Shown here: positions 12,001 through 18,000 of the stretch, in pieces
How the letters are laid out: every line of letters begins with the position of its first letter
How positions within the stretch are numbered: position 1 is the stretch's first letter
NCBI RefSeq assembly: GCF_000026545.1
Contig: NC_011601.1
Reading direction: 5' to 3' (one strand)
DNA from: Escherichia coli O127:H6 str. E2348/69
GTDB lineage: Bacteria; Pseudomonadota; Gammaproteobacteria; Enterobacterales; Enterobacteriaceae
DNA: 64,000 nucleotides
Program-made: the position numbers

Positions 12001-15000
12001 GGGCTCACCTGCTGATGGAAAACCTCGCCATGGTCAATCCTAATCTCGGCTATTCAGTGGATGAGGCCTTTCTGTACCGGGAGTACCGTAAAGCCCGGGA
12101 AGCCGGTGAAGAGACATTCCGGGGGTTCATGTCAAAACACGCCAATGTGGAAATTGGTCTTGCCCTGCGCTCTGACCGCTGGGCGGGGGCTGATTTCTGG
12201 GAAGAGCAGGGCCGTTGTATCAGCCTGGACGATATCCTGCGTCGTGCTGATGTGGTGACGGTGGGGATTGACGGCGGAGGGCTGGATGATCTGCTGGGGA
12301 TGTATGTGATTGGGCGTGACCGGGAGACCCGCGAATGGCTGGGCTGGGGCCATGCCTGGGCGCATGAAACCGCGGTGGTCCGACGGAAGAGCGAGGCGTC
12401 CCGGTTTCAGGATCTTGTTGCCTGTGGAGATATGACCATTGTCCGGCGTGTCGGGGATGACACGGCGGAAGTGGCGGAATATGTGCGTCGCATTCATGAG
12501 GCTGAGTTACTGGACCATATCGGTATTGACCCGTCAGGGGTGGGGCAGATTCTGGATTCACTGGCGGAAGCCGGGATCCCCGACGGAATTGTGGTGGGGA
12601 TAAGCCAGGGCTGGAAACTGGGCGGGGCCATTAAAACCACCGAGCGCAAACTGGCTGAAGGGGTGCTGGTGCATGGTGACCAGCCCCTGATGGCCTGGTG
12701 TGTCGGCAATGCCCGGGTGGAGCCTAAAGGTAACGCCATTCTTATCACCAAACAGGCCAGTGGACGGGGAAAAATTGACCCGCTGATGGCGCTGTTCAAT
12801 GCGGTCTCCCTGATGTCCCTTAACCCGGAACCGAAAAAGAAAGAATATGCGGTTTTTTTCATATAACCCTGTTCACACTGTAACCATCACGAACCGCTCC
12901 GGCGGTTTTTTTATTTTCAGGAGGCTGATGTGACTCTTAAACGGGCCTGTTCCCTGCTGACGGTGAAATCCTTCAGTGAGGATGAACGAGTGATCACCGG
13001 GATTGCGTCAACGCCTTCTCCGGATCGGGATGGTGACATCCTGGAGCCGGAGGGCGCGGAGTTTGGCAGTGCGATCCCGTTTCTCTGGCAGCATGACCAT
13101 TCCCGCCCGGTGGGGCAGTGTACGGTGCGCCGGGTCAGCGAAGGGCTGGAAATCACGGCAACACTGGTGAAGCCCGTACCGGATATGCCGTCGCAACTGG
13201 CTGCCCGGCTGGATGAGGTCTGGGCGGCCATTAAGACCGGGCTGGTCAGGGGGCTGTCCGTGGGCTTCCGTCCCCATGAATACACCTTTCTGGACGGAGG
13301 CGGACTGCATTTTCTGCGCTGGGAACTGATGGAGGTGTCTGCCGTCACCGTGCCCGCGAATGCGGAATGCACCATCCGGACCATTAAATCTTACGACCGC
13401 CCGTTTTCTGCCGCGTCCGGCAACCGGAAACCGGTGGTGAAAATCGCATCTTCTGCCGGCGCTGCGGCACAGTCAACAACCGTTTTTCATAAGGAAAAGA
13501 CCATAATGAATATTGGCGAACAGATTAAAAGTTTTGAAAACAAGCGTGCAGCGCTGGCAGCCTCCCTTGAGGAGGTCATGACCAAAGCCGCAGAGGAAGG
13601 GCGCACGCTGGATGTGGAGGAGGAAGAGCATTACGACAACACCGCAGCGGAAATCCGTCAGGTGGATGCGCACCTGAAGCGCCTGCGTGAACTGGAAGCC
13701 GGTAAGGCCGCCACGGCGCAGCCGGTGAAACAGGCCGGTAACGGGAATGTGGCCGCGGTGGCTTCTGCGCCGGTGATCCGTGTGGAGCAGAAACTGGATA
13801 AGGGGATTGGCTTCGCCCGCTTTGCCAAATCGCTGGCTGCGGCTAAAGGCGTCCGATCTGAAGCCCTGGAAGTGGCCCGTCGTCAGTATCCGGATGACAG
13901 TCGTCTGCATCATGTCCTGAAATCGGCAGTGGGCGCGGGGACCACCACGGATCCGCAGTGGGCAGGCAGCCTGTCTGAATATCAGGAATACGCACAGGAC
14001 TTTATTGATTACCTGCGTCCGCAGACCATTATCGGGCGATTTGGTCAGGGCGGGATCCCTGCACTTCGTCAGGTGCCGTTCAATATCCGTGTGCACGCCC
14101 AGGTGTCCGGCGGTGCTGCCGGCTGGGTGGGTGAGGGTAAGGCAAAACCCCTGACGAAGTTTGATTTTGAATCCATCACCTTCAGTCATGCGAAGGTGTC
14201 GGCCATTGCGGTACTGACGGAAGAATTGATCCGTTTTTCCAGTCCGGCTGCTGATGCACTGGTCCGTAATGCGCTGGCGGAAGCGGTGGTGGCGCGTCTG
14301 GATACAGACTTTGTGGACCCGAAAAAAGCCGCAGTGGCAGATGTCTCCCCGGCGTCCATCACCCATGATGTGAAGGGCACGGCATCAACCGGTAACCCGG
14401 ATGCGGATGCAGAGGCTGCGTTTGGACAGTTTGTGGCAGCAAACCTGCAGCCCACCGGTGCGGTCTGGCTGATGTCCAGCACCAATGCCCTGGCACTGTC
14501 CATGCGTAAAAATGCGCTGGGTCAGAAGGAATACCCGGACATGACCCTGCTGGGTGGCTCCTTCCAGGGGCTGCCGGTGATTGTCTCCCAGTACGTGGGT
14601 GACCAGCTGGTGCTGGTGAATGCCCCGGATATTTATCTGGCGGATGACGGAGGCGTGGCAGTGGATATGTCCCGCGAGGCATCACTGGAAATGCAGTCTG
14701 AGCCGACCGGCGACAGTACCACGCCGTCCCCGGTGGAGCTGGTTTCCATGTTCCAGACAGGCAGCGTGGCCATCCGTGCGGAGCGCTGGATCAACTGGCG
14801 TCGTCGCCGTACCGCGGCGGTGGCGGTGATCACCGGAGTGAACTACGGCAGTGCGTCCGGCGGCTGAGTCTGATAAGGAGGACGGGAGGCGTGCGCCTCC
14901 CGTAACAGGTTATGGCAAAGATCCGATATCTGCAGGGCACGCATGATGCCCGGGCCGGGGATATCCGTGATGTGGCACAGCCGTGTGCGGAGGTGCTGGT

Positions 15001-18000
15001 TCGCCTGGGAAAGGCGGAGTACATCACGGTGCGACGTCCGGCAGGTCAGAAAAAGAAACGAGATGCGGAGCATGGCGAATGTGGAACCTTTTACGGCGAA
15101 CCCGAAAAAACCAGAAATCAGGACGTGACGTAAGAGAGGTGGGCTGGACCAGCCTGTTTCAGGCGGTGGCTGAGCCCTTTTCCGGCGCCTGGCAGCAGGG
15201 CGTGAAAGCCGATCCTGAAGCCGTCCTCTCCTTTCATGCGGTGTTTGCATGTATTTCGCTGATATCCCAGGATATCGCCAAAATGCGGCTGCGTCTTATG
15301 CAGACGGATGCGCATGGGATACGCAGGGAAACGCGCCGGGGGGATATTGCCCGCCTCTGTCGTCGTCCCAACGCCCAGCAGAACCGCATCCAGTTTTTTG
15401 AACTGTGGCTGAACGCCAAACTGCGTCACGGCAATACGGTGGTGCTGAAAATCCGTAATGCCCGGGGGCAGATCAAAGAACTGCGTATTCTGGACTGGAG
15501 CCGGGTTGAACCTCTGGTGGCGGATGACGGCGAGGTGTTCTACCGCATCACGCCGGACCGGAACTGCGGGATCACGGAGGCGGTGACGGTGCCTGCCCGG
15601 GAAGTGATCCACGACCGGTTTAACTGTTTTTTTCATCCGCTTATAGGATTGCCGCCGATGTATGCCGCCGGGCTGGCGGCCACGCAGGGGCATCATATTC
15701 AGGAAAATTCGACGTCTTTTTTCAGAAATGGTGGCAGGCCGTCCGGGGTGATTGAGATCCCCGGCAGTATTACGGAAGAAAATGCGAAAAAACTGAAGAG
15801 CAACTGGGACAGCGGGTATACAGGCGAAAATGCGGGGAAAACGGCCATTCTGAGCAACGGGGCAAAATACAACCCCACGACGTTTTCACCTGTGGATGCG
15901 CAGACGGTGGAACAACTGAAGATGACCGCTGAAATTGTCTGTTCGGTGTTCCGTGTCCCGGCCTACAAGATTGGCGTGGGACAACCGCCTTCCAGTGACA
16001 ACGTGGAGGCGCTGGAGCAGCAGTATTATTCCCAGTGCCTGCAGACGCTGATTGAGTCCATTGAACTGTTACTGGATGAGGCGCTGGAGACGGGGGAAAA
16101 CGAGAGTACAGAATTTGATGTCACCACGCTGCTGAGAATGGACAGTGAGCGGCGCATGAAAACGCTGGGGGATGCGGTGAAAAATACGCTTCTCACGCCC
16201 AATGAGGCCCGTAAACGGGAGAACCTGCCGCCCCTGGCCGGCGGTGATGCACTGTATCTTCAGCAGCAGAACTACAGTCTGGAGGCGCTGTCCCGTCGTG
16301 ATGCCCGTGAGGATCCGTTCTCGTCTGCCGGGAAAACAGTTTCATCACAGCTGCCTGACGGCGCATCTGACGGTAATAAGGCAATCAGTGAAACAGAGCA
16401 TGATGCGGTGAAAGCGATGTTCAGGGGGGATACTGAGAAAATGACGGAACGGGAACTGTCCATTATTCGTGCACTGGGAGAAGAATTCTCCACAGTGCTG
16501 GCGGATTTACAGCGCACATTTGAGGGGAAGATGGCCTCGCAGGCACAAGCGTTTGAAGAGAAACTGACTTCCCTGTCGGCGGTATTACAGAAGCATGTGA
16601 CGGTGGATGAGGTGCGTCCGGTTCTGCAGGCGATGGTGGATGACGCTGTGGGGGCCATTCCGGTACCGCGTGATGGTCGTGATTATGATCCGGATGTACT
16701 GCAGCAGGCGGTGAATGATGCGGTCGCAAATATTCCGCAGCCGGCGGACGGTAAAAGTCTCACCCCGGATGATGTGCGTCCGATGCTTGAACAGATGGTG
16801 AAGGAGGCTGTAAGCCATATCCCTGTTCCGCGTGATGGTCGTGACTACGATCCGGAAGTACTGCAGAAGGCGGTGAATGATGCGGTCGCAAATATTCCGC
16901 AGCCGGCGGACGGTAAAAGTCTCACCCCGGATGATGTGCGTCCGATGCTTGAACAGATGGTGAAGGAGGCTGTAAGCCATATCCCTGTTCCGCGCGACGG
17001 TCGTGACTATGATCCCGATGTTCTGCAGAAGGCGGTGAATGATGCGGTCGCAAATATTCCGCAGCCGGCAGACGGTAAAAGTCTCACCCCGGATGATGTG
17101 CGTCCGATGCTTGAACAGATGGTGAAGGAGGCGGTAAGCCATATTCATGTTCCGCGTGATGGTCGTGACTACGATCCGGATGTTCTGCAGAAGGCGGTTC
17201 TGGATGCGGTGAGTGCCCTGCCGGCTCCGCAGGACGGGCGTGATGCCACGGCTCTGGAAATACTCCCCGCCATTGACGATCAAAAATCCTTTCCCCGGGG
17301 CACGTATGCCACACACCAGGGCGGACTCTGGCGGGCGTATGAAAAAACGCACGGGATGCGGGGATGGGAATGCCTGGTTGACGGGGTGGCGGATATTGAC
17401 GTCAGCATGACGGGTGAGCGGTTGTTCTCTGTGGTGGTCCGGCAGAGCAGTGGCCAGCGTACGGAAAAAACATTTTCCCTGCCGGTGATGCTCTACCGCG
17501 GTGTGTTCAGAGCCGGTGAAACCTACCACCCCGGCGATACGGTGACGTGGGGGGGCTCGCTGTGGCACTGCAACAGTATGACCGAAGATAAACCCGGAGA
17601 AGCTCATTCATCAGCCTGGACCCTGGCTGCAAAACGTGGGCGGGATGCAGGAGGCGGAAAATGACGGCATTACTGACACTGGAAGAGATCAAGGCACATC
17701 TGCGTGTCGACCATGACGCGGATGATGACATGCTGATGGACAAGGTTCGTCAGGCTACCGCCGTGCTGCTGGCCTACATTCAGGGCAGCCGGGATAAAGT
17801 GATCCGTGAGGACGGTGAACTGATCCCGGGCGAGGCATTAACCCGGATGAAGGGGGCTGCCATGCGACTGACCGGGATGCTGTACCGGAATCCGGATCTT
17901 GCGGAGCGGGAAGAACTGCTTCAGGGGGAGCTGCCGTTTTCTGTTTCCGTGCTGATTTACGATTTGCGTTGTCCGACGGTGTTATGAGGAGGGGGAATGG

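Follow-up and report, generated by a model that had tools for sequence, protein, structure and literature searches.

We analyzed a 64,000-nucleotide (nt) stretch of Escherichia coli O127:H6 str. E2348/69 (contig NC_011601.1; hereafter "the window," with positions counted from its first letter) and found that the prophage head genes it carries very probably form the head module that is standard in a clade of HK97-type siphophages with a wide distribution. In the window, the portal gene is joined to its downstream neighbor (here termed gene X) by a +1 G allele, and we propose nested translation starts in the capsid gene and roles for two hairpins around it. The order of the clade is a permuted one: terS, terL, protease-capsid, small gene, portal, gene X, and adaptor, and all features of the module given below, genes and sequence signals alike, lie on the + strand of the window. 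At the level of public annotation this gene order is already known, and it is ordinary for the clade. The terminase genes terS (10645-11208; Pfam Terminase_2, E = 1.3e-8; also called by the Prokaryotic Genome Annotation Pipeline, PGAP) and terL (11205-12866; Pfam TerL_ATPase and TerL_nuclease) sit directly 5' of a 645-amino acid (aa) open reading frame (ORF) that carries Peptidase_S78 together with Phage_capsid, while Phage_portal falls in the next large ORF. Searches of Pfam, NCBIfam, and PHROG placed neither a portal domain on the 645-aa ORF nor a capsid domain on the following ORF, previously read as 893 aa long. Because the domain searches thus gave no contrary assignment, both the observation and the interpretation of the first-pass annotation, namely, that a protease-capsid fusion follows the terminase genes and precedes the portal gene, stand. 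The canonical HK97 head order is terL, portal, protease, capsid. With the protease and capsid domains on the 645-aa ORF and the portal domain on the next one, the order seen here (terL, protease-capsid, small ORF, portal) therefore differs from it. The order had accordingly been called atypical, which is correct when it is held against HK97 but not within its own clade, where the synteny comparison showed it to be invariant.

The extent of this conservation was apparent from 80 IMG/VR loci, which we collected by scanning viral contigs with a profile built from diverse fusion proteins, and whose flanks were assigned by comparing the window proteins with six-frame ORFs using phmmer. In every locus that extended far enough, terL lay 5' and the portal gene 3' of the protease/capsid region, and none of the 80 related viral contigs (40-100% identity) had a portal gene upstream of protease/capsid. 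Isolates that share the order come from E. coli, Salmonella, Pseudomonas, Rhizobium, Burkholderia, and Moraxella, and the annotated ones include Pseudomonas phage PAJU2, Rhizobium phage RHph_X2_26, and Salmonella phage FSL SP-016. The order is independent of the fusion, as Burkholderia phage vB_FUBS1, Moraxella phage Mcat6, and one metagenome contig (L010) have it with separate protease and capsid genes. Salmonella and Serratia prophages, whose fusion proteins are 74-78% identical to that of the window, displayed an identical order, and the module was present in 1059 of 5426 complete E. coli genomes (about one in five), with PGAP, GenBank, and RefSeq labels already covering its genes. The clade takes in long-tailed Shiga toxin (Stx) and lambdoid E. 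coli prophages as well as PAJU2 and FSL SP-016. In addition, a published transcript table for an insect-associated bacterium lists one polycistronic RNA with a matching gene order (PMC8156552).

The protease-capsid fusion is real and ancient. The ORF at 12930-14867 had been predicted to combine an HK97-type protease with a capsid domain, and Pfam and NCBIfam confirmed both, with a delta (scaffold-like) segment between them; the whole protein also matched phrog_617 (E = 1e-261). The prohead serine protease core (residues 48-152; 13071-13385) matched PF04586 with 34.7 bits against a cut-off of 21, although the stricter equivalog TIGR01543 reached only 46.5 bits, under its cut-off of 59. The HK97-fold capsid domain (residues 386-635; 14085-14834) matched PF05065 with 53.1 bits (cut-off, 24.2), and TIGR01554 scored 78.1 bits (cut-off, 27.5), aligning query residues 204-584 with profile positions 3-355 of 385. 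As this match sets in at residue 204 on profile position 3, it includes the HK97-type delta region. Two protease residues, H55 and S110, were invariant in an alignment of 30 diverse homologs (36-78% identity), a pattern that fits the His/Ser pair of HK97-type proteases and whose members we take, from general knowledge and without structural superposition, to be the counterparts of His65 and Ser114 of HK97 gp4. The fusion protein had 2494 close matches, full-length homologs in >100 clusters at 50% identity, and 12,577 matching representatives at E ≤ 0.001, and a sequence search of the PDB gave a single weak capsid match. Its GTG start follows a strong AGGAGG (12919-12924) with a 5-nt spacer (12919-12932 in all), at a position where Salmonella and Serratia have ATG. 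As a separate observation, two homologs of 1091-1094 aa (P0243 and P0252) carry ~440 extra N-terminal residues ahead of a full protease-capsid match.

A candidate second start lies inside this gene. At 13490-13508, a TAAGGA motif (13490-13495) is followed by a 10-nt spacer and an ATG at 13506 (Met193), from which the protein would open with MNIGEQIKSFENKRAAL, a typical delta-domain N-terminus, and residues ~166-192 before it form a poorly conserved linker. Query residue 193 is also the exact starting point of four stand-alone capsid homologs (P0371, P0384, P0320, and P0349). In three genera, the ATG and an AAGGA were kept despite differences in both the residues and the length of the linker, and across 68 nonredundant fused genes a Met codon (or GTG) was conserved at this site, in many of them with GGAGG 5-9 nt ahead of it. 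The mean Shine-Dalgarno (SD) pairing energy at the site was -7.0 kcal/mol, compared to a background of -2.4 kcal/mol, and the site ranked among the top 5% of its own gene's in-frame positions in 27 of the 68 genes and among the top 1% in 21, in counts uncorrected for shared ancestry. The same SD motif and ATG were found in two contigs (L034 and L065) where a stop codon separates protease from capsid.

Read from the sequence, this pattern suggests that the 645-aa ORF is translated from two starts into a protease-delta-capsid and a delta-capsid product. The full-length chain would begin at GTG 12930, and a 453-aa delta-capsid chain would probably also be made from the internal ATG 13506, such that a minority of capsid subunits may carry a covalently attached protease into the procapsid, with the protease then removing itself and the delta domains.

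Hairpins are found on either side of the capsid gene. Directly 5' of its ribosome-binding site (RBS), a terminator scan picked up a terminator-like hairpin (12891-12916; GAACCGC/GCGGTT followed by a T-run), whose 12891-12908 portion corresponds to a Rho-independent terminator as defined in that scan; in an alignment it was conserved in Salmonella and Serratia with changed stem bases. Past the capsid stop, sequence and folding revealed an AAGGAGG (14875-14881) and then a G+C-rich 9-base pair (bp) hairpin, which together span 14875-14903. Its stem pairs ACGGGAGGC (14882-14890) with GCCTCCCGT (14895-14903) around a GTGC loop, so the hairpin first noticed at 14884-14901 is real, that span being the G+C core of a structure that extends over 14882-14903. 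G+C-rich stem-loops with different stem sequences occupy the same position after the capsid gene in other E. coli phages, Salmonella, and Serratia, and most enterobacterial stems there are identical. In the 70 nt past the capsid stop, the best hairpin averaged -22.3 kcal/mol over 78 distinct loci, versus -14.9 kcal/mol in capsid-coding windows, and it was stronger than all eight coding-region control windows in 57 of them; T-rich, terminator-like tails were seen at about a quarter of the 78. Conserved hairpins thus bracket the capsid cistron on both sides, and most likely they would set the level or stability of its mRNA, raising or stabilizing it as compared with the low-copy genes for portal and connector that come after. 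Elsewhere in the window, a further terminator-like hairpin (19159-19181; CCCGC/GCGGG followed by TTTTTT) lies just 5' of the major tail subunit gene (start, 19196) and mirrors the pre-capsid one.

A number of points weigh against this account of nested starts and flanking hairpins. The internal SD of the window itself is moderate (-6.2 kcal/mol, which ranks at the 11th percentile among in-frame positions). No T-run follows the stem of the post-capsid hairpin, its tail reading AACAGGTTA, and it was not listed by the terminator scan; termination at 14882-14903 is for that reason unproven, and we rejected a canonical terminator at this site. The searchable literature contained no proteomic or N-terminal data for two products from one ORF, and literature and full-text searches returned no paper on the order, the processing of the fusion, the nested start, or the mechanism of expression (papers on CBASS, MD8, AH14a, and Ab31 had no bearing on them), so that the status of the module as known rests on database annotation. 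Moreover, the SD motif before Met193 could be a relic of once separate genes, and a single self-cleaving polyprotein is physically possible.

These last two points meet in an alternative according to which only a polyprotein is made: each capsid subunit would be synthesized with its own protease and cleave itself, and Met193 with its purine-rich motif would be left over from a two-gene ancestor. Such an arrangement is consistent with an ORF that is uninterrupted and conserved and with an internal SD that is weak to moderate in the window, and by our rough estimate ~415 protease domains would fit a T=7 procapsid. A relic should decay, however, over the distances involved, and the retention of GGAGG 5-9 nt before the Met by many fused relatives at 40-50% identity, in a linker that is otherwise poorly conserved, therefore counts against it. 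We regard translation as a polyprotein alone as a substantial possibility, albeit on balance a doubtful one.

The post-capsid hairpin likewise has a second possible role, in the translation of the small ORF that follows. Phage T4 genes 25 and 38 provide the precedent of a split RBS, and here the hairpin at 14882-14903 would loop out and bring AAGGAGG close to the ATG at 14912. In 16 distinct enterobacterial sequences, an SD-like motif, always AAGGAGG, lies 5' of the hairpin and the ATG follows the hairpin at a distance of 8-9 nt, without a good SD in the interval, and it is this constant placing that leads us to retain a split RBS as a lesser alternative. On the other hand, distant relatives have an SD after the hairpin and often a T-rich, terminator-like tail, and in some sequences the GGAG merely lengthens the stem by pairing with a T-tract. 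A hairpin that serves mainly for translation of the small ORF thus appears rather unlikely to us, and control of the capsid mRNA remains the reading that we prefer.

That small ORF (14912-15133; 73 aa), which had been noted between capsid and portal, does exist and is a conserved gene (phrog_829, E = 3.7e-39), for which Pfam and NCBIfam contained no family. In Salmonella and Serratia it encodes 55-56 aa, and its stop codon overlaps the portal ATG as TAATG or TGATG. The alignment showed that in E. coli this stop (in the region 15073-15081) has become GAA, because of which the small ORF there runs 18 codons over the portal start.

The portal gene had been described as an ORF of 893 aa at 14983-17664, of which the portal domain held up, but neither the start nor the extent of the portal did. 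PF04860 matched residues 86-414 of the 893-aa ORF with 272 bits (cut-off, 39.1), TIGR01537 scored 348.6 bits (cut-off, 112), and by sequence the ORF matched the solved portals 9lbn (E = 2.9e-28) and HK97 8cez (E = 7.9e-20). The GTG at 14983 is, however, merely the first start codon past a stop. The start is the ATG at 15079, which has a GGAG upstream, is the start chosen by PGAP, and opens an N-terminus (MWN...) shared with Salmonella and Serratia. This start gives a product of 861 aa rather than 893 aa, of which only the first ~454 residues (15079-16440) constitute a portal protein proper, of the HK97 family.

The remainder of the 861-aa product is gene X. In Salmonella and Serratia, gene X is separate and 300-347 aa long; it comes after a portal of 449-451 aa, the two genes overlapping by ATGA, and the ORF of the window aligned end to end with both. 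At the junction, the alignment revealed a run of six G residues (G6; 16424-16429) with one extra G relative to a five-G (G5) allele: The window reads TTCAGGGGGGAT, while most E. coli phages read TTGAGGGGGAT. The G5 reading yields MLRGILRK-stop, matching the end of the Salmonella portal, MIRGFLTK-stop, and it is through this one extra G that the portal stop was lost and the portal became fused in frame to X. The fused allele occurred in 10 of 83 phage records, against 73 with the split allele, and the exact fused allele was present in 746 complete E. coli RefSeq records and therefore is not a sequencing error. The split genes are the ancestral two-gene state and the long "portal" is a derived frameshift fusion, and the pseudogene label that some depositors have given to the split portal in several GenBank records appears to be backwards. 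The portal-X gene of the window represents a +1 G allele of a pair that is normally two genes and translationally coupled; a +1 ribosomal slip on the G6 run may in principle restore a separate portal. We also observed a second, apparently independent portal-X fusion ORF of ~1100 codons in two metagenomic viral contigs (L021, 9276-12581, and L022, 2160-5897) whose capsid is ~60% identical.

Could the 861-aa product instead be a true "large portal," with a C-terminal extension under selection that forms an internal or portal-anchored fiber, as four trimers on the 12-mer? The fused allele is common, portal and X invariably lie next to each other and, where they are two genes, share an ATGA overlap, and a fusion has arisen independently in L021 and L022. 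The fused allele is also present in phage 2851, which in its original description reportedly formed infectious particles. Yet most E. coli phages (the 73 of 83 above) have the two genes apart and no other state was seen in Salmonella and Serratia, a conserved portal C-terminus reappears in the G5 reading, and X resembles external receptor-binding fibers, while the C-termini of portal proteins generally face the capsid interior. In view of this interior-facing geometry, the fused allele may be a tolerated defect, a processed precursor, or the sign of a portal-anchored structure. A selected large portal we consider unlikely, and the derived fusion of two ancestral genes remains our reading.

Last, it is scarcely credible that a defective prophage acquired this order or fusion by local rearrangement, or that either reflects a pseudogene or an artifact of assembly, for even though insertion sequence (IS) elements and gene remnants occur elsewhere in the prophage and the portal-X junction differs from most relatives by a homopolymer indel, order and fusion recur in all 80 related contigs, as well as in isolates of several genera that form plaques or were induced, and the exact G6 allele in the E. 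coli and phage records counted above. The clade-wide conservation rules out a local rearrangement as the origin of the order, and the recurrence in contigs and isolates likewise rules out that the protease-capsid fusion is a pseudogene or sequencing artifact.

Gene X itself (16441-17664; 407 codons, fused to the portal in the window) comprises a long N-terminal helix, helical repeats, and a C-terminal beta domain with a CBM5/12-like end. Tandem Repeats Finder detected a 162-bp (54-aa) tandem repeat at 16666-17198, with 3.3 copies and 95% matches. Homolog lengths rise in steps (289, 347, and 405 aa) and the number of repeats varies, the C-terminal beta domain is conserved, and distant homologs have collagen-like runs in place of the 54-aa repeats. 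No Pfam or NCBIfam family covered the bulk of X. At its C-terminus, the CBM5/12 family PF02839 scored 18.9-24.4 bits, under the gathering cut-off of 26.2, and by fold this end did correspond to CBM5/12. The AlphaFold2 model of full-length X was poor (predicted local distance difference test score, pLDDT, 51.6) and was not used for the fold search, whereas the C-terminal 143 aa alone were modeled well. Gene X looks like a fibrous, putative glycan-binding protein encoded between portal and adaptor, and its public names ("gp6-like head-tail connector," "portal protein," and "FIVAR") look like carry-over from neighboring genes. An external fiber sits awkwardly with the portal fusion, because of the inward orientation of portal C-termini. 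As compared with CBM5/12 domains and receptor-binding fiber tips, X lies between portal and adaptor and not in the tail-fiber region.

Taking these elements together, we tentatively put forward a broader proposal, which we rate as falling somewhat short of probable: The clade would set its protease:capsid ratio by a herpesvirus-like nested gene, with a weak GTG start for the full-length chain, a more abundant delta-capsid chain made through Met193, and a hairpin-bracketed cistron that tunes the mRNA, and gene X would be a portal-proximal, collagen-like fiber with a carbohydrate-binding tip that can be welded to the portal, as in two independent lineages. In lambda C/Nu3, Mu I/Z, and herpesvirus UL26/UL26.5, an N-terminal protease is encoded in a long ORF from which an internal in-frame start gives a protease-less assembly product. 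By analogy, nesting would determine the stoichiometry and direct the protease into the procapsid. The shared part here is, however, a capsid with its delta domain instead of a separate scaffold, and the internal start is deduced from the nucleotide sequence alone.

Among characterized phages, the head module of PAJU2 (ORF002-ORF008) and those of E. coli phages 2851, BP-4795, and YYZ-2008 display an identical order of terL, fused protease-capsid, small gene(s), portal, X, and adaptor, and the fusion protein of the window shares 48% identity with the PAJU2 protein (ORF003, annotated as "prohead protease fused capsid protein") and 99% with its counterparts in these E. coli phages. In PAJU2 and most E. 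coli relatives portal and X are two genes, whereas in the window they are fused through the G6 allele, the protease-capsid gene starts with GTG, and the small ORF is extended. HK97 itself (gp2 terL, gp3 portal, gp4 protease, and gp5 capsid) draws on the same families, TIGR01537, S78/TIGR01543, and TIGR01554 with the delta domain, and like the window has no separate scaffold gene. Capsid proteins of this family lose the delta domain by proteolysis, and those of HK97 itself are in addition crosslinked between Lys and Asn. HK97 differs in that the window has its portal after the capsid, protease and capsid in one ORF, and the extra gene X after the portal. Fusions with the same kind of architecture are known from actinobacteriophages, in Arthrobacter clusters AN and AU and in Microbacterium cluster EE, under the label "major capsid and protease fusion protein," and from the family NF045541 ("prohead protease/major capsid protein fusion protein"). 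NF045541 is nevertheless a different sequence family from the fusion of the window, which scored 54 bits against a cut-off of 525 and aligned over residues 48-287, a match confined to the protease/linker part.

The order in itself is of little import, being the correct reading of an arrangement that is annotated in about a thousand E. coli genomes and several isolated phages, and the nested-start and gene X readings are the sole parts with some novelty. The practical value lies in annotation: a portal start at 15079, a split portal that is ancestral, and a long portal that is derived. If the nested start is true, it would offer a simple bacterial-virus parallel to the protease loading of procapsids by herpesvirus UL26/UL26.5. 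Gene X would then become a candidate uncharacterized glycan-binding fiber beside the portal in medically relevant Stx and enteropathogenic E. coli (EPEC) prophages, and a portal-proximal fiber, if that reading is true, would be a neck or portal fiber undescribed so far for these siphophages.

The window holds a lambdoid prophage of EPEC E2348/69 that adjoins the trp operon, and it is 100% identical to NZ_LT827011. The head region is 99.5% identical to that of Stx2c phage 2851 and 95-99% identical to those of dozens of long-tailed Stx1, Stx2c, and Stx2a phages. A gp6-like head-tail adaptor gene (17661-17987; Pfam Phage_connect_1) starts in overlap with the gene X stop, and 3' of the portal region Pfam and PGAP identified, after this adaptor, genes for head closure, a gp10-like protein, tail terminator, tail tube, chaperone, and tape measure. 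The major tail subunit (19196-19912) has an immunoglobulin-like C-terminal domain (Ig_3, Ig_2, and I-set matches). Just 5' of terS and terL lies an HNH endonuclease gene (9989-10354), a pairing that also occurs in the Salmonella and Serratia relatives. Stx phages carry stx downstream of the Q antiterminator gene; in the window, the region 3' of Q (2730-6872) contains tRNA-Ile, tRNA-Arg, an ISEc13 transposase gene, and a DUF6645 gene. Past the tail fiber genes, at 32000-42000, the G+C content is low (0.39-0.46), and this region includes the type III effector genes nleA, nleH, and nleF with an espO remnant, together with IS fragments, an integrase pseudogene, and an ompW remnant.

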